Source of the DNA: Squalus acanthias | Taxonomy: Eukaryota | NCBI GenBank assembly: GCA_030390025.1 | Contig: CM059432.1 | Coordinates: 98,272,001 to 98,336,000, forward strand | Reading direction: 5' to 3' | Length of the DNA: 64,000 bases | Part shown: positions 53,521-61,854 of the stretch, piece after piece | Layout of the letters: every line of letters begins with the position of its first letter | How positions within the stretch are numbered: the stretch's first letter is position 1 | Notes under the pieces: model-generated | Seen by the model: the letters and a program-made list of their open reading frames with translations, nothing else | What the model was told of the DNA's origin: nothing | Database searches by the model: none | Position numbers and translations under genes: made by a program

Positions 53521-53541
53521 CTCTCTCTGTATCTCTAGCTC

Positions 53542-54661
53542 TGTAGGGGGTGGTGGTGGTAGGGGTCAGCCTTTCCCCTGACTCAGTGAGCGGTTCGAAT
53601 CGCTCCCACGCCCCAGGTTCAGACCTTGGACTTAATTAGGGGTTGTGAATAAAGATGCAGTAGACAACAGGTTCCGATGAAAGAATTTTGGCTTTTATTC
53701 AAAGTAAAAGGTAACAAACTTAAAACACACTTCACACTTAAACAGGTTGGGAAACATACGGTACAGGCGAGGGAGAATGACAATATACAAAACCCTTATC
53801 CCTCCCAAGAATCCCACTATCTAGCTAGGTTTTTGGTTTCAGGAGATCAGGGATAATGCTCACCAATGAATCCTTGACAGGATTTTAGAGTCTTTTGATT
53901 AAAACATTTTGTAAAGCCCTTGTTGCTGCGAGGTGTCCGATGGTCACTGAGGCAGTCGCTCTGGTTTCTTCTTGTGTGATGGTCTGTTTGTTGGCCTCCC
54001 TCCTTCCTCCTCGTGGCTTGTGGTGTCTTTTGCTGGAGCAGGGCTGAGAGAGAGAGAGAGAGAGAGAGTTGTTCCAGCATTGTCAGCGAGTCTAAAAAGA
54101 GAGAGCGAGTCTTGGGTCAGGCTGCAATTATATAGTCCTTTTCGCGCCCAAAACCCCTTACTAAAACGGTTTCGTGCTGAAGTGATTGGTTTCAGTTGAG
54201 GCCTGTTCATTCCATTGTCTTGTTAAGTTTGGATGGGCCTTCAACTATGCTAAACCAAATCAAATCCTGGTCAATTGAAAGACCTCGTTACCAGTAACGG
54301 CTTTTTTACTGAGTCAAATGGCTTGCGTCCTGTCGATCTGTTGTTTTATTGGAGTTTGCAGTATCCTCATGTTTTGGGTTTCTTGCTGGGCCTAGCATTC
54401 CTATCTTTATGCGTCTCCTTTAATGGGTTGTGTGTTTTGGGTGGGGCGGCCTTCTCCCAGGGCCTATTGTCCAAATGTTAATGTTTGCTGGGGCTTGAAT
54501 TCCCAGACAATGCAATACCCAAAACTGCTATTTACAGAGGTTGATCCCACATGCTGTGCAGCCTCCTCTTCCTTACATGTCCAGACATGTTCTTTTAAAG
54601 TTCCAAAGTCCTTATTTTTTTCCTTAGATTTTGGGGATCTGCAAATTTTGGAAACTTTACA
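53542..54661 (-). repeat. 3' LTR (1120 bp)
   Basis: Direct repeat of 60288-61404; on the - strand TATATAA at 54128-54134 and AATAAA at 53694-53699. Confidence 0.97.
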
Positions 54662-54672
54662 GTCCCTCCTGC
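54662..54672 (-). other. Polypurine tract
   Basis: - strand GCAGGAGGGAC directly before TGTAAAG of the 3' LTR. Confidence 0.7.
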
Positions 54673-54951
54673 GATACTTTGAGTTCACTACAGTATCGTC
54701 CTGGGTGGACAAAATTCCTGATCCCCGAAAACCAACCTTCCCCTGTATTACCTAAACTAAAACCCAAACATACATTCCCCTTTAAATGTGGTGTTTTAGG
54801 TGCATACAGGTAAGAACATTTTTATTTCACAACCAAGCACGGAAAGGGTCCGACACCCCTGCACTGCCTGGGAAAACACATATATCTTTATTAAACAGAA
54901 CAAAACACAAAAAAACAACAATCTTTATTCAGGAACACAGAATAAAAAAAT

Positions 54952-57293
54952 TCAAACAGGTGTATCTCTCTCCACCTCAGCATAATGCTTCTTCCAAGTC
55001 CTTTCATTTCGGAACTGTAGTATTCTGCCCTTTCCCTTGCACTGAGTGCACACCAGGTACAATACTATTCCCAGTTGGCAAACTACGAGGAGGTGGGAAG
55101 CCATTCTGACCCATGAAGGGACCTCTATGTTTTCGAAGATGTCCCACCAGGGTGATACCTTGAATCTCTCTCTATCTCGTGTGTTTTCTGTTCTAAAGTG
55201 TAGAAATGTTTTTGTGAGAGCTCTACAGCTTTTAGTAACTTGGTAAGGCGTTCTGGTAGCTGGGGAATTTCGTAGCCAAAATGTGCTACATATTTTTGCA
55301 GGTTGGTGAAATTTTGTGTTACAGTGAGGTGAACAGTGGAGGGTTCAGGAATGGGGACAATCCGTTCCTGGGCCACTTGAACTGCTGCCTCGGGTTTAAA
55401 GCAGAAACTGCTGTCACTTACCGGACACCAGGTATGCTGTCCATACTGGTAGTGAGGCGCGCTGGTGGTGACACAATATGTCCCACCTCCTATATATGCT
55501 ACCTGTGGAGGGACATGGTCTTGTGCCATTACCTCCATGGTACAGTTTATAGGTCGTGCGCCAGCAGCTTTAAACCCGCACTGTGGTTTAGAATAGGCGT
55601 TCAAGTGCTGGGGACACAGTATTATGTGTGCTCCCCGGCTCCAGCACCCGGAGAGGTCTGTACCTGTCATAGCGTGCTCCCACTTTATGACATAAGGTGG
55701 GACAGCTGTGAAACGGATGTGTGCACCCCCTTGAATGACTCCAATGTTCTCCACCCTGTATACCGGTGCGGGTCGGGCGGTCCCACCCATGACCGGCATC
55801 CTCACCACTATCTCCATGATAGTGTGATTGGAACACCCACAATCTACTGGTACAGGGTAGGCTTCAGAGGCTAGACGCAGCTGACATGGGCTTAGTGAAT
55901 TCTCAAATGGGTGGAGGGCTGCGAGGTGCTTGTTGCTGATCCAGGAGGGGACTAAACCTTGCTTTAAATCCTCCAGGTTACTCCGGCCCTCGCCTCGCAA
56001 CCATGCCCCGTACCGTATGCACACCTCGTTCTGTGCAGCCTGGTCTGATGCATTCCTGTCCTCCCGTATGAGTGCATTTACCGTCTTTGCATGCCTTTCC
56101 AGCTCAGCAATGATTTATTTTAAATGGACCGTCATAGCTTGGTCCTCGTGTAACTCTGAGCCCACTACTGTATTTTCATCCATTAAGATTTTGCGTAATT
56201 GTGTTTTTAAACCGTTTATTTGTGGCTGCAATTCTATGTCATCCAGACTGTTGATGACAGAGGACCCTGTATTATATGCTGTAAAAACATCATTCCAGGC
56301 TCCCCTCCTTTGTCTCCCCGTATTGCTAAAATACTCAGTGTGTGCAGTGTACAGTTCTGTTTTGTCTACGTTTGCGAAATCGAACTCGTAGAACTTCCTG
56401 AACATTTCTCTGAACAGGGCCTGGTATAGCTGTTCCGTCTCTTTGGGGCACCACTCAGGTAAGTGTACCTCCGTGAGGTTTAGGATCACGGAAGCTACCG
56501 CATAGTGTACCCCCTGGTATAGCACCTTTTCGGTTGGCACTAGTACCAGCCCATTCCCTGGTCCCTTGGTGGTGGCAGGGCACGTCTCTGTGTGTGTCCT
56601 TGCTGTCTGGGTCGTGGGCAGGGGCTTACGGGCGTGTGCCACGAGTTCAGTGGCCTTGACTGGGGCTGGAGAGGGCGGGACTATGCAAGTGTGTAGGTGG
56701 GAATCCCATTTCACCCACTTCCCCTTATCCAGCCATGCTGCGGAAAAGATAATGGATATGCCCGTGGGGCAGGCCTTCCGCGACCCCCACATGCAGACAT
56801 AAATCCCCTGTTCCGATTTCTACCACTTGTCCCAGCACACGCTCACACCCCTATGGTCCCCTGTAATGGTCCGATGGGTGTCGTTCCCCAGTCGCTCCCA
56901 GTCAGCTGTACGGTCCCCCATATCTCTGCTCAGCTTCCTGAGCCACCACCACCTCCCCAGGGGAATCTGTCCTCTGCAGGTCAGGCACACGCGTTTCCCC
57001 TCAGTGACCCCGACCCGAGTGGCTACAACCTGTATGCTGGGACAGGGGAGGGAGGCCTCCCCATAGGTGAGCCCAGTCTGACTGGAGTATCGGGTGGAGT
57101 TAGATCCCAGCCACCCTGGCCATCTTCCCACGTGGGAATAGGTAGCGAGCTCCTCCACGCCTCGCTTGCTGCCCCCCGCAGTCACAACCGGTGCTCTCTC
57201 TCCTGAGCACCCAAAAATGTGGGAGTCCTCCACGTCACCTCGCCTCCCAGCGCTCATTCCTATCAGAGCGAGTAGGAGTATGCCCCCCTTCAT
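54952..57293 (-). pseudogene. env: Envelope glycoprotein (~780 codons): signal peptide, Ig-like domain, furin site, class I fusion-like ectodomain, TM; two in-frame stops and one frameshift
   Basis: ORFs 56820-57440, 56115-56792 and 55125-56024 share one frame (stops at 56820 and 56115). Signal MKGGILLLALIGMSAG; RQRR|GAWNDVF at 56315-56304; a shifted frame gives PWWDIF...MASHLLVVCQLGIVLYLVC...DTPV* ending at 54952. Confidence 0.85.
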
Positions 57294-57307
57294 ATCGACA
57301 ATCCCTT

Positions 57308-57328
57308 CTGTAAGGAGACACAAGAGCA
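57308..57328 (-). promoter_or_regulatory. Putative env splice acceptor
   Basis: - strand TGCTCTTGTGTCTCCTTACAG|AAGGGATTGTCGATATG, 14 nt before the signal-peptide ATG. Confidence 0.65.
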
Positions 57329-57613
57329 TATAGCCAGGTCCCGAGTAGATTCTCTGGCTTGGGTGAAGCATAGTCGGGTCTTGCAACCTCGACTCAATGC
57401 AAAACACTCTTGAAACTATAACATTTAAACTACCAACCACCTTACTTAAAATTTAACTAAAAACACCCAAACTTAACAATCTCAAAATTTCACAATAAAA
57501 GCTATGTACATTTGCCACCCGTCTCCGAGCAGCCAGCCTAAACCCTGTCGGGCTGCAGCACACTACTCGCTTTGGTGTGGCCGCCCTGTCCTGTACCTGT
57601 TGTCCCTTGCAGC

Positions 57614-58461
57614 CTATGGCTGCTGGCTGCGGACCTCTGTCCTCAGATCGATCCCTGACTTGAGGGGCGACCTTTTTAAATTGGGGAGCCGGTGACCACG
57701 GTTTCTTTGGCTGTGGCGTTCGTGGGGACCTTCTAGGGGCTCTGGCTGGTGGGGTTTTCTGGCTGGTGGGTCTTTAACATGAACCACTGCCCCCTGTTGT
57801 GTGGTCTGTGAATCATCCACTGCCACTGCCTGGGGATTTCTATCCTCAGAGTGTACCTCTTCTAAACCTGTGTCAGGGTCAGGTGACTCTTCGCAGCCTG
57901 GTGCTGCAGGCTGCGGGTCCCCGCCTCCAGGTTCAAAACCTGGGTCGGGGGCGGGGCTATCTGGTTCGGGCTCCTCCTCCTCCCCACCTGAGTCCCAGAA
58001 GAGAGGGGGGGTGGTTTGAACAGGGGCCTGGGTGACTCCTCCCTCAAGACAGGCCACCGCCCCTGCTTGTGCAGTCTGTGAAATTGCTCCTGCTGCAGGC
58101 TGAGGATTTCTAACCTGTTTTAGTTTGGGCAACTCTGCTACCATGGCTTGCAACTGCGGGTGGTGAATTCCCCCGGGGTTGTTGAGCAAACCATCCCTCT
58201 GGCTTTGGATAGGGCTTGGGCCAGACCTTTTATCCTTTCCTCACAGGGCCCATGGTTTAAATCCACATACTCCCTGCTCCTGGCTACGCTGTAGGCTGCC
58301 TTTATGTCTCTAAGCTGCCCCTCTAGCCCGTCTACTTTACCCATTAAGCGGGTGTTCTCCTCCCGTAAGGCCTGCTCATTTAACCTGGCCTCCTTACGGG
58401 AGGTCTCTTCCTGTGCGTGTCTTTCAAGGGGACACAGGTAGACAGGCTGCGCTGGTTCTAG
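57614..58461 (-). pseudogene. Gag-derived read-through ORF in the pol position (one frameshift near 58165-58190)
   Basis: Open in the gag frame from 58461 to 58138; similar to the Gag coiled-coil/DHGPC block, then HPQLQAMVAELPKLKQ (Gag: TQQLRVMVSHLSKLTQ), then an acidic Pro-rich tail. Confidence 0.7.
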
Positions 58462-60285
58462 TCAGAAGTCTGGGTTGTATGGGGCTGATGGGGTCAGAGC
58501 ACCGATGGTTGCTGCTACCTTCCCTGGGCCAGTCAATAGGGACCTCATGGCGTCCAACAATGACTCGACCGTGGCGGGAGGGATCCCTGTCTCTGCCTTT
58601 TGGGCTGGGGCTGAGGAATTCTTTCCCTTGTTATCCTTCCAAGGATTCTTACACTCCTTCCTCCAGTGACCATCCTTCCCACACCCATAACAGTTAAGCT
58701 TTGTGCTGGAAGGGTTATTCCCTTCCTGATGCCACTCCTTCCTACTCTGGCCGGGTTTTATTTCATGTACTTTCCCTTTTTGTGGGGGCTCTTCCGCTCC
58801 TCTACCGTTCCGGTAGGCCAGGTTCAGCTGTCTGACCACTGCCTCCTCGGTGACCCGGGGGTCTTTCGGGTCAAACCAAAGCTCAGCCTGGGTTTTGATC
58901 CGTGGCAAGCTGTTTGCCACTAGGCTATGGAGCCAGTGGGCCAGCTCATCCCGGTTTAGGTGAGCCCTGTTAAGATCCCCACTGCAAGCACCCCTGTACA
59001 CGGGCCACAGCCTGTCTGCGAACGCCTGTGGGGTCTCTCCTGCAAGCTGCACTGTTTTCTCCACCCGGGAGAAAGGACTTCCCTCATTCATCCCCATGGC
59101 CTCTAAAACTTCCTCTCTGATGGCAGCATATCCATTCTGTCCTCTCTTGCTCTCAGCAGAGAGGGACTGGTATAGCCGGCTGTCCAGTGAGAACAGGAGC
59201 ATTTTTGCCATCTTGGCATCATCACAGTCGTTGATGCCTGCTGCCTGTTCTACTTCTATGAAGTGAACTGAGGGGTCCCCTTGTTGGGTGAGTTTACTCA
59301 GGTGGCTTACCATAACCCTAAGCTGTTGTGTACCGTGGGGAGCCATGAACTGGCATTGGAGGGGTCCCCCATCCCCGTTATCAGCAGGTGGGCCAAACCT
59401 TTCCTGCCGGGCCGGGCACATCGGCCCCGGTCCCAGCCTCTCTTGCGGGGGTTTTTCCACCTCAGCTTCTGCCCCTAACTCCACCCCTTCTTCTTGCCAG
59501 ACTTCGCTAAAGCTTGGCGCTATGGGTGGTGGTCGTGGGCCCTCCTGCTCCTCAACCGGGTCGTCCCTTGGCGCTATCTTTGGTATCTGAACCGTTCTCC
59601 CCAGGTTCCCTGTAAAGTCGACCTGGGCTGCACTTGGGCTTATGAGGCACGCCACACCTCTTGCCTTCCTCAGAGCAAGGCTGAGACTCTCTATCTGCTT
59701 CTGACAGGGGCCATGGTCTGCATCCTCAAACCCCTGTGCTCTCATTACCTTATAGGCTGCCTGTAAGCCTTTTACTGTCTCCTCCTGCTCTCTTACTTGT
59801 TTTGCCAGGCGGGCATTCTTTTCCCGCAACCTCAGCTCATTGTTCTTGGCCTCTGTGACCTGGCACTGTAAATAATCCTGCCAGGTCTTATGTTCCCCCA
59901 CTAACTGCACCCTTTCCTGGTTTAGCGCCTGCAATGCTAACAGTAACTTCTCCCCTGCTAGGGCCTTTGTTTGGACTTCCAGGGCTGACTCCCGAATCTC
60001 AGCTGCCTGTGCTTCAACGAGTCTGTCCAAAAGTTGGATCTGTTTCTTGAAGCACATCAGCCAGACTGCCTTTTCTAAGGATTTTTTATGATCCTTCCCT
60101 TCTGTCCATTTAGCTGCTGCATCTACCGGGCGCCCAGTTTTTAACAGATTAGTGACCCACTTCTTTTCCATATTCACTTTGCTGAATACATAATCTGAAA
60201 TCCTCTCTTCCATTACAGTTCTCTCTTCCGAATCAGTGTCTACTGCTTCACAACCCTTTTGCCAAGTCCGTACCACAGTCGCCAT
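58462..60285 (-). CDS. gag: Gag polyprotein, 607 aa, uninterrupted
   Basis: N-terminal coiled coil, Pro/Glu linker, MHR-like QLAGETPQAFADRL, CCHC knuckle CYGCGKDGHWRKEC, C-terminal PSAP; first ORF after the 5' LTR. Confidence 0.93.
   Translation of the reverse strand: MATVVRTWQKGCEAVDTDSEERTVMEERISDYVFSKVNMEKKWVTNLLKTGRPVDAAAKWTEGKDHKKSLEKAVWLMCFKKQIQLLDRLVEAQAAEIRESALEVQTKALAGEKLLLALQALNQERVQLVGEHKTWQDYLQCQVTEAKNNELRLREKNARLAKQVREQEETVKGLQAAYKVMRAQGFEDADHGPCQKQIESLSLALRKARGVACLISPSAAQVDFTGNLGRTVQIPKIAPRDDPVEEQEGPRPPPIAPSFSEVWQEEGVELGAEAEVEKPPQERLGPGPMCPARQERFGPPADNGDGGPLQCQFMAPHGTQQLRVMVSHLSKLTQQGDPSVHFIEVEQAAGINDCDDAKMAKMLLFSLDSRLYQSLSAESKRGQNGYAAIREEVLEAMGMNEGSPFSRVEKTVQLAGETPQAFADRLWPVYRGACSGDLNRAHLNRDELAHWLHSLVANSLPRIKTQAELWFDPKDPRVTEEAVVRQLNLAYRNGRGAEEPPQKGKVHEIKPGQSRKEWHQEGNNPSSTKLNCYGCGKDGHWRKECKNPWKDNKGKNSSAPAQKAETGIPPATVESLLDAMRSLLTGPGKVAATIGALTPSAPYNPDF
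60267..60284 (-). other. Primer binding site, tRNA-Ser-like (imperfect)
   Basis: TGGCGACTGTGGTACGGA starts 3 nt after the LTR; TGGCG is complementary to the CGCCA end of tRNA-Ser; isoacceptor not resolved. Confidence 0.55.
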
Positions 60286-60287
60286 TA

Positions 60288-61404
60288 TGTAGGGGTGGTG
60301 GTGGTAGGGGTCAGCCTTTCCCCTGACTCAGTGAGCGGTTCGAATCGCTCCCACTCCCCAGGTTCAGACCTTGGACTTATTTAGGGGTTGTGAATAAAGA
60401 TGCAGTAGACAACAGGTTCCGATGAAAGAATTTTGGCTTTTATTCAAAGTAAAAGGTAACAAACTTAAAACACACTTCACACTTAAACAGGTTGGGGAAC
60501 ACACGGTACAGCGAGGGAGAAGGACAATATACAAAACCCTTATCCCTCCCAAGAATCCCACTTTCTAGCTAGGTTTTTGGTTTCAGGAGATCAGGGATAA
60601 TGCTCACCAATGAATCCTTGACAGGATTTTGAGTCTTTTGATTAAAACATTTCGTAAGGCCCTTGTTGCTGCGAGGTGTCTGATGGTCACTGAGGCAGTC
60701 GCTCTGGTTTCTTCTTGTGTGATGGTCTGTTTGTTGGCCTCCTCCTTCCTCCTCGTGGCTTGTGGTGTCTTTTGCTGGAGCAGGGCTGAGAGAGAGAGAG
60801 AGAGAGAGAGAGAGCTGTTCCAGCGTTGTCAGCGAGTCCAAAAAGAGAGCGAGTCTTGGGTCAGGCTGCAATTATATAGTCCTTTCCGCGCCCAAAACTC
60901 CTTACTAAAGCGGTTTCGTGCTGAAGTGATTGGTTTCAGTTGAAACCTGTACATTCCATTGTCTTGTTAAGTTTGGATGGGGCTTCAACTATGCTAAACC
61001 AAATCAAATCCTGGTCAATTGAAAGACCTCGTTACCAGTAACGGCTTTTTTACTGAGTCAAATGGCTTGCATCCTGTCGATCTGTTGTTTTATTGGAGTT
61101 TGCATTGTCCTCATGTTTTGGGTATCTTGCTGGGCCTAGCATTCCTATCTTTATGCGTCTCTTTTAATGGGTTCTGTGTTTTGGGTGGGGCGGCCTTCTC
61201 CCAGGGCCTATTGTCCAAATGTTAATGTTTGTTGGGGCTTGAATTCCCAGACAATGCAATACCCAAAACTGCTATTTACAGAGGTTGACCCACATGCTGT
61301 GCAGCCTCCTCTTCCTTACATGTCCAGACATGTTCTTTTAAAGTTCCAAAGTCCTTATTTTTTTCCTTAGATTTTGGGGATCTGCAAATTTTGGAAACTT
61401 TACA
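60288..61404 (-). repeat. 5' LTR (1117 bp)
   Basis: - strand TGTAAAGTTTCC...ACCCCTACA; TATATAA at 60872-60878; (CT)n run; AATAAA at 60439-60444. Confidence 0.97.
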
Positions 61405-61854
61405 GCTCTCTCTCTATATATATAATATATATATTAAACTGGGTAGATTATCTCAGATGGGTTTAATGATCTCATATACATATCTTATGATCTTATGACC
61501 TTCTGCCTAAACTAACTAAACCAAATCAATCATGTAAAGGAAAGCAGGTTAGCTTATATGGGATCCTCATAAACTAAAACACATGCCTTTAATTCACCAC
61601 AGTGCATGATTCAATTTTTCAAGGTTGAACAATTAATTAACCTCTGCTCAGGAGCTGATGTGGGAAGCCCATTATGTTCACATGGCCAGAGCACAAAGCA
61701 AGCAAACTATAACTACTTAGTCAAATTTATTTACAGATGAAATAATATACAGAAACAAAAAGACAGTTTTTCTAAAAAGAATTAAAAAATGTACTGTTTA
61801 TGAACTAATTGAAAAACAGAAAAGTACGCAAACATTTTTAAAGTTCTTCTCAAC

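Follow-up and report, generated by a model that had tools for sequence, protein, structure and literature searches.

Anatomy of the window element

The window analysed here is a stretch of 64,000 nucleotides from the Squalus acanthias genome (GenBank assembly GCA_030390025.1, contig CM059432.1, positions 98,272,001 to 98,336,000 of the forward strand). Our subject is an endogenous retrovirus (ERV) on the minus strand at window positions 53542-61404, which carries gag and env with no retroviral enzymes between them. A preliminary description, made from the sequence, had reported a cleanly integrated provirus, and we found its integration marks in place. The 5' long terminal repeat (LTR; 60288-61404, 1117 nt) and the 3' LTR (53542-54661, 1120 nt), both TGTA...TACA, show 26 mismatches over 1124 aligned columns (2.3%) and are flanked by the target-site duplication GCTC (53538-53541 and 61405-61408). 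The polypurine tract (PPT), GCAGGAGGGAC (54662-54672, minus strand), adjoins the 3' LTR, and its core is common to families B and D, described below. The primer-binding site (PBS; 60266-60284, minus strand) is of the tRNA-Arg(TCG) type and decayed; in the sister copies L034 and L050 it agrees over 19 nt with the 3' end of that tRNA as encoded in the host.

All internal features likewise read on the minus strand. The gag gene (58462-60285) is a single open frame of ~607 aa with an N-terminal coiled coil, a capsid region and a CCHC knuckle. Its stop, TGA-CTA, is followed by the three components that occupy the pol slot: a 12-codon pol stub (58426-58461); a Gag-type coiled-coil piece that replaces ~3.65 kb of pol and is out of frame in this copy (58117-58425); and a Pro/Glu-rich Pol C-terminal tail (approximately 57520-58116), which in pol-bearing copies lies in frame after integrase. 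The env gene (54952-57293, ~783 codons) would encode, from 5' to 3', a signal peptide, an N-terminal extension, an F-like core, a furin site, heptads, a Cys-rich domain, a PWWD motif and a transmembrane segment (TM). It is dead in this copy, broken by in-frame stops near 56820 and 56115 and by a frameshift immediately ahead of PWWD/TM. A protein-family scan of six window frames detected no reverse transcriptase (RT), no RNase H and no integrase. The earlier claim of gag and env without pol is therefore right about the enzymes, but env is broken and the pol slot is filled rather than empty.

At 2.3% LTR mismatch, the insertion would date to ~5 million years ago at the mammalian rate of PMC7947760 or to ~50 million years ago at the assumed shark rate of PMC4422223, so that its age is known only loosely. 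Two PBS variants occur among the copies, one of them the exact tRNA-Arg(TCG) match; the single sequence pattern tried found no tRNA for the other. Within 60266-60287, the earliest start codon (ATG) of gag lies partly over the PBS. The host genome holds hundreds of tRNA-Arg(TCG)/tRNA-Ser(GCT) units in 1,623-bp tandem arrays (431 genome-wide matches). Window positions 1-53000 consist mostly of what we take, from translations, to be remnants of CR1/L2-like and RTE-like LINEs and of Harbinger-like transposases, and no host gene was identified there.

Pol-less copies inserted independently alongside pol-bearing relatives

An env search (40 scored matches among 3355 candidates) yielded 39 retrieved stretches. 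The replacement piece was whole in 25 and partial in three; nine stretches were pol-bearing and two were curtailed. For the window element's own family, which we call family A, exact-pattern counts across the genome gave 66 pol-less junction sites versus 23 pol-bearing sites, with reversed-pattern controls at zero. The survey of target duplications covered 36 of the 39 loci. Among the 17 family-A pol-less copies with both ends read, 13 had a perfect 4-bp duplication, and these comprised 11 distinct sequences, or 12 with the window copy included. Copies L050, L052 and L061 have common flanks and are duplicates. The same junction at 66 sites, with 12 distinct target duplications, demonstrates that the window copy was inserted already pol-less and was not emptied later.

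In the pol-bearing A copies, protease, RT, tether, RNase H and integrase lie in frame with gag past one stop, and in one of these copies PF17917/PF17919 followed by PF00075 marks a dual RNase H. The PBS, PPT and termini are the same in pol-bearing and pol-less A copies. Median LTR mismatch was 2.2% for pol-bearing (n=11) versus 2.4% for pol-less copies (n=20; p=0.58), leaving out L045, L063 and L066 (no pair, or unreliable) and the duplicates L052, L058 and L061. In the env tree, whose bootstrap support is not fully settled, the two kinds of copy are intermixed, as expected if pol-less and pol-bearing RNAs were co-packaged and recombining. The independent pol-less copies and a candidate for the pol-bearing helper that the preliminary description had suggested seeking genome-wide were thus both found. 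Together, these results establish two hallmarks of a trans-mobilised non-autonomous LTR element, namely many independent insertions without pol and a contemporary autonomous partner sharing its cis signals. The pol-less copies were presumably mobilised in trans.

Contigs from runs of four other organisms also cover the cassette, and one of them bridges the right junction and continues into a B-type tail; the pol-less form is therefore not limited to the Squalus acanthias genome. Two runs presumed to be RNA cover the stretch in contigs only, which speaks neither for nor against expression. Within family A, internal regions are 94-96% identical, whereas much of U3 is just 65-72% identical between LTR types, reflecting either rapid U3 turnover or exchange.

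The cassette that replaces pol came from a second pol-less family

The ~310 nt that stand in place of pol encode a Gag coiled-coil homologue and lie within a cassette of ~400 nt. The encoded piece is 44% identical over 73 aa to the window element's own Gag N-terminal coiled coil (E 4e-18) and 35-44% identical to the Gag of families A and C; a database search over its first 140 residues returned no Gag donor among 202 candidates. In 28 of the 37 copies with both junctions read, the Pol frame is kept across the join. The gag stop reads TGA-CT(A/G) in 24/25 pol-less and 7/8 pol-bearing copies, a context that favours readthrough. Nine of the 25 pol-less copies, three duplicates among them, have a post-stop frame of ~290-360 codons that reaches the native Pol C-terminus. 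From this arrangement we infer that the UGA at the end of gag may be read through.

A 21-mer spanning the junction had 215 matches in the genome. Sixteen of 20 sampled junction loci belonged not to family A but to a second family, B, whose gag and env are just 67-73% identical to those of A; the sample was drawn from the first 100 sites with retrieved copies skipped, and so leans to B. We consequently dropped 215 pol-less versus 23 pol-bearing sites as a ratio for family A. By exact pattern, pol-less family B accounts for 180 junction sites. Its LTRs measure ~1.4 kb, and six of seven copies have perfect 4-bp duplications. The body of the B LTR has no BLAST match to the A LTR, yet its opening 10 nt agree with those of A, and the two families also share the Arg PBS and the core of the PPT. 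An env was matched in 14 of 16 sampled B copies and had no match in the other two. Some B copies are open in gag, in a post-stop frame of 350-405 aa and in env.

Windowed comparison revealed where the two families meet. The gag and env windows of the window copy are 94-100% identical to A and 30-78% identical to B, whereas its cassette is 90-100% B-like, with the switch from A to B at ~58490 and back at ~58090; the family-B-like recombinant tract thus has approximate limits of 58090-58490 on the minus strand. In A copies the cassette flanks carry B-type letters, with at least two different left crossovers. These data indicate that the cassette moved from B to A, and, as judged from the identity windows, that the window lineage is a mosaic with a family-A backbone and a family-B cassette.

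A young gag-pol-env family is the likeliest helper of family B

Family D has 569 exact matches to its pol-start motif and a gag-pol-env layout. The gag and pol frames were open over 3 kb in all six copies sampled, and env was present in all eight sampled, seven of them with an open frame. Its LTR pairs are 97-100% identical, five of them without a mismatch. Family D is thus very young and present in many copies. Its sister family is the pol-less B: the Env proteins are 90% identical, the DNA differs by ~20% over tail and env, and in the env tree D env is nested inside B env. Family D is the likeliest helper lineage of B. We also considered a bipartite system of gag-pol and gag-env genomes with env-less helpers, which is ruled out because D has env in 8/8 sampled copies.

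Family C (L070-L073) is pol-bearing, with a pol ~82% identical to that of A, and has nested LTRs in L072 and L073. In the env tree, one pol-bearing family-A copy, L088, falls with C and is a further inter-family recombinant.

Env has a predicted paramyxovirus F-type fold

The furin-type site RQRR (56304-56315, minus strand) ends at residue 330 of Env. In a sister copy with an open frame, 453 residues lie beyond it and PWWD stands at residue 718; the gamma-type TM motif CX6CC is absent from both that copy and the window env frame. The ~450 aa past the furin site, the PWWD and the missing CX6CC had all been read correctly in the preliminary description, whereas the furin site that it called early is not unusual once the N-terminal extension of ~240 residues is counted.

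We modelled the open-frame sister Env (783 aa) with AlphaFold2 from an alignment of 43 sequences. Foldseek returned 216 PDB matches at E<=0.001 (best E 3e-10), and among those listed all were paramyxovirus or pneumovirus F proteins (human parainfluenza virus 3, respiratory syncytial virus, Newcastle disease virus and henipavirus F). Structural alignment to postfusion Nipah F covered 291 residues at Z 12.0 and rmsd 5.0, and residues 245-712 of the model run in the same order as F2-F1. Among predicted viral structures (BFVD), lispivirus F, baculovirus F and walleye retrovirus Envs matched as well; snakehead retrovirus was absent from the 50 matches listed. Similarly, the neighbours of Env by language-model features were the Baculo_F and Fusion_gly clusters (scores 0.91-0.92). 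Sequence profiles give no such link: the Pfam profile PF00523 matched none of the 43 alignment members, and a PDB sequence-profile search with Env reached a best E of 0.1. Env is thus F-like according to its predicted structure and language-model features. The preliminary description had named two findings that would overturn its reading, a pol-less structure occurring only once and an Env unlike class I fusion proteins; the structure recurs, and Env resembles those proteins. Its term "non-retroviral-type" envelope is overstated, given that the retroviral Envs of foamy and probably walleye viruses are F-related too.

Within the N-terminal extension, a predicted beta-sandwich (56724-56999, minus strand) was modelled at low confidence (predicted local distance difference test, pLDDT, 42; best Z 5.8, below 8 throughout). 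Almost every one of the 50 matches listed has an Ig fold, and Pfam Ig_3 matches at E 0.044, which weakly suggests an Ig-like domain. Among named homologues of Env, the best come from Rhinoraja (58%) and Pristiophorus (61-81%), in keeping with a cartilaginous-fish host. More distant homologues, at 20-33% identity, occur in Mustelus, Chiloscyllium, Pelodytes, Xenopus and Mantella; one of the distant homologues, P0031, has a different N-terminal head, Ig-like by its source's naming. Two Pristiophorus japonicus gene models (P0003, P0004) fuse a zinc-finger or Niban-like frame to Env pieces and are probably annotation artefacts.

Family B gag and env are under purifying selection

We classed variants site by site as private or common to at least three copies, and as nonsynonymous or synonymous, leaving out L052, L056 and L061 as duplicates of L050. 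In B env, the common variants comprised 42 nonsynonymous and 73 synonymous changes versus 119 and 96 among private variants, a ratio 0.23 of neutral (p=0.0012; p=0.0049 at non-CpG sites). Family B gag gave a similar outcome (p=0.003; non-CpG 0.03), and the env of pol-bearing A copies carried a comparable signal of constraint (p=0.0003). These data demonstrate purifying selection on gag and env of family B. An element probably benefits in cis from its own Gag and Env, a view that has good support in B and is tentative for the window lineage.

The pol-bearing parent is probably SnRV-like

Snakehead retrovirus (SnRV) has an Arg-tRNA PBS and a gag-pol joined across a stop codon, and the element has both an Arg-tRNA primer and, in its pol-bearing form, gag-pol in frame across a stop. 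In alignments compared by eye, the family-A RT reads LPQGFHNSP, PTVA and QYVDD and resembles SnRV in all three, the first being LPQGFHASP in SnRV; Loki rows in the PMC7947760 alignment read ..PFG[YL].N.. and SRWPM or SGWPVP. Over four blocks and ~117 positions, also by eye, family-A RT shares ~70 identities with SnRV and ~50 with Loki-Lch. The parent's RT therefore appears, by eye, to be SnRV-like and not lokiretroviral. No 3'ORF-like frame was seen in the element.

In trees built without SnRV or Loki references, A and D grouped with proteins of amphibians and coelacanth (~50% identity), outside a clade of five gamma/epsilon-like rows and apart from Ty3/gypsy; their deep forks are open. RT matches to murine leukaemia virus and foamy virus reached E ~1e-52 versus 8e-34 for Ty3, and the RT was separated from gypsy-like rows at 100/100 support, so that an errantivirus, with its Ty3/gypsy RT, was rejected. 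Lokiretrovirus identity, which we had favoured at first, was dropped on the RT motifs. An integrase closest to CGIN1 is a further lokiretroviral trait; some database names read "NYNRIN-like", but such names are not diagnostic. The likeness to lokiretroviruses and errantiviruses noted for Env in the preliminary description does not extend to the RT.

A non-autonomous recombinant lineage, probably mobilised by its relatives

The best explanation overall, to which we assign a probability of about 0.8, is a non-autonomous recombinant lineage of an SnRV-like ERV, mobilised by pol-bearing relatives, of which the window element would be a dead germline copy. Its autonomous parent, A, would have had the layout LTR-gag-UGA-protease/RT/tether/RNase H/integrase-tail-env-LTR with an F-type Env, while a separate pol-less family, B, would have exchanged its pol, in frame, for a coiled coil of Gag type. 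After co-packaging, template switches at blocks conserved to either side of pol could then have carried the B cassette into A genomes, repeatedly, and so given rise to the window lineage. Pol-less RNA retains the PBS, the PPT, the att ends and presumably a packaging signal; with these cis signals it could be primed by tRNA-Arg, reverse-transcribed by relatives' Gag-Pol and integrated with a 4-bp duplication. The helpers would be A for the window lineage and most probably D for B, and Env may be used in cis for cell-to-cell reinfection.

Several observations weigh against this explanation or parts of it. Family B, with a median LTR mismatch of 1.2%, is younger than the pol-less A copies (p=0.004) that it is proposed to have supplied, which requires that the cassette came from an older stratum of B; a single sampled B copy stands at 4.2%. 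Pol-bearing B was not found by the two exact patterns that made up the only search for it. Constraint on amino acids was not detected in cassette and tail (p=0.33-1; few sites); they are indistinguishable from neutral sequence, and the readthrough product may be a mere frame-preserving relic. In pol-less A, the ratios of 0.49 for env (p=0.089) and 0.45 for gag (p=0.085) form a non-significant trend, which exchange with pol-bearing A copies could by itself yield. Perfect duplications were seen in only two of six pol-bearing A copies with both ends read, and the bootstrap of the env tree is unsettled. The Env model itself has pLDDT 65 and a predicted TM-score of 0.47, with TM-scores to its matches of at most 0.50.

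How much the pol-less elements contribute to their own spread can be read in more than one way. A tentative extension of our explanation, with the odds against it, is a long-lived enveloped satellite retrovirus that supplies its own Gag and a working F-type Env, borrows only Gag-Pol and passes in particles from cell to cell or host to host, the cassette acting as a mobile "enzyme knock-out" whose recombination makes satellites of autonomous families; the readthrough product, consisting of Gag, the extra coiled coil and the Pol tail, may then serve as a decoy for Gag-Pol and promote assembly together with the helper. A satellite supplying capsid and envelope had been proposed in the preliminary description, and selection in B agrees with it, but in A there is a trend only, and the window copy cannot supply Env. 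Conversely, these could be passenger genomes mobilised wholly in trans, with gag and env idle and their constraint inherited, or refreshed by recombination, from viruses that carry pol, whether endogenous (A and D) or unsampled (an exogenous virus or a pol-bearing B). The intermixing of pol-less and pol-bearing A env, the position of D env inside B env, which hints at B-D exchange, the non-significant selection in A and the two of 16 sampled B copies with no env match all speak for passengers. Nevertheless, variants common among B are strongly synonymous-biased despite a ~20% DNA difference from D, and the pol-bearing B that could have refreshed them was not found by either exact pattern. Moreover, env loss is the usual fate under intracellular retrotransposition, yet env is retained in 14/16 sampled B copies. 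We therefore consider the passenger account improbable.

Two further accounts fare worse against a recombinant, trans-mobilised lineage. That the element derives from a lokiretrovirus, the first in a cartilaginous fish, would suit its F-type Env with an RXXR site, its dual RNase H and a Gag N-terminal coiled coil like that of the "smc-gag-pol" of PMC7947760, a paper that reported lokiretroviruses in 0/6 chondrichthyan genomes. Yet a dual RNase H occurs in every retrovirus and so is not diagnostic, and the RT motifs are of SnRV type with ~70 versus ~50 by-eye identities; we regard this derivation as very unlikely. A single later deletion of pol from one provirus, or spread by segmental duplication, draws on the duplicates L050, L052 and L061 and on the existence of tandem arrays. 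It has next to no probability in view of the junction shared by 66 sites on many contigs, the 12 target duplications and the foreign sequence in the pol slot, which no mere deletion can produce.

Significance and relation to known systems

ERVs are usually thought to amplify through env loss, whereas here several hundred copies have lost pol and kept env, in B under selection. They make it possible to test, in a vertebrate germline, the idea of reinfection by a retrovirus that depends on a helper and is defective-interfering-like. The common cassette would be a record of co-packaging between families just ~70% identical. The F-type Env on an SnRV-like pol adds one more retroviral lineage to the F-fold group (lokiretroviruses, foamy and probably walleye viruses) and bears on the question of whether an F-type Env was ancestral in retroviruses. 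Pol-less elements of this kind would be wholly missed by RT-based ERV surveys. In the literature searched, with subscription journals and Repbase outside its scope, we found neither a pol-less gag+env SnRV-like shark family nor an SnRV-like pol accompanied by an F-type Env. Precedents exist for every ingredient, but in that literature we met no SnRV-like vertebrate ERV that combines an F-type Env with hundreds of copies lacking pol and retaining env and with an inter-family cassette in place of pol.

The RT motifs of the pol-bearing parent, compared by eye, ally it with SnRV and SnRV-like ERVs. The latter are known in elephant shark as CmiERV lineage I; a pol-less gag+env lineage, present here, is not mentioned in the available portions of PMC4422223, PMC12193657 and PMC4977317. 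Lokiretroviruses (PMC7947760) likewise have an F-like Env with RXXR and a Gag N-terminal coiled coil, but their RT motifs differ, and the Loki-Xtr Env, as presented there, has no counterpart of the ~240-residue extension. An F-related retroviral Env is also found in foamy virus (PMC11468914; PDB 8rm1, Z 8.6). The Envs of walleye epsilonretroviruses are structural matches in BFVD (E 4e-10 and 3e-8), so that this element is not alone in having an F-like Env. Foamy and walleye Envs are much longer, with large receptor-binding domains, whereas here the core (245-712) is collinear with F.

Among defective ERVs, chicken EAV-HP retains env, with most of its pol deleted. EAV-HP (PMC4607243) and mouse ETn/MusD (PMC10089650) probably spread with a helper, like our element, and had internal parts replaced by recombination; ETn is non-coding, and both systems have conventional orthoretroviral genes, unlike the element here. 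Gag-only non-autonomous members of the lokiretroviruses are also on record, namely Bhikhari/Bik-1 and Bik-2 (bioRxiv 10.1101/2024.03.25.586437). These too are non-autonomous, but they lack both pol and env, whereas our element keeps env. Arabidopsis Athila (PMC2410132) is alike in being pol-less and trans-mobilised, with purifying selection on gag and env and recombination between distant families. Athila is a plant Ty3/gypsy element whose env-like open reading frame is of unproven function, and there recombination made a pol-less element autonomous, the opposite of the present case, in which an autonomous family became pol-less through a cassette. By analogy, then, the element resembles Athila and Bhikhari in its mode of operation and is a member of neither group.

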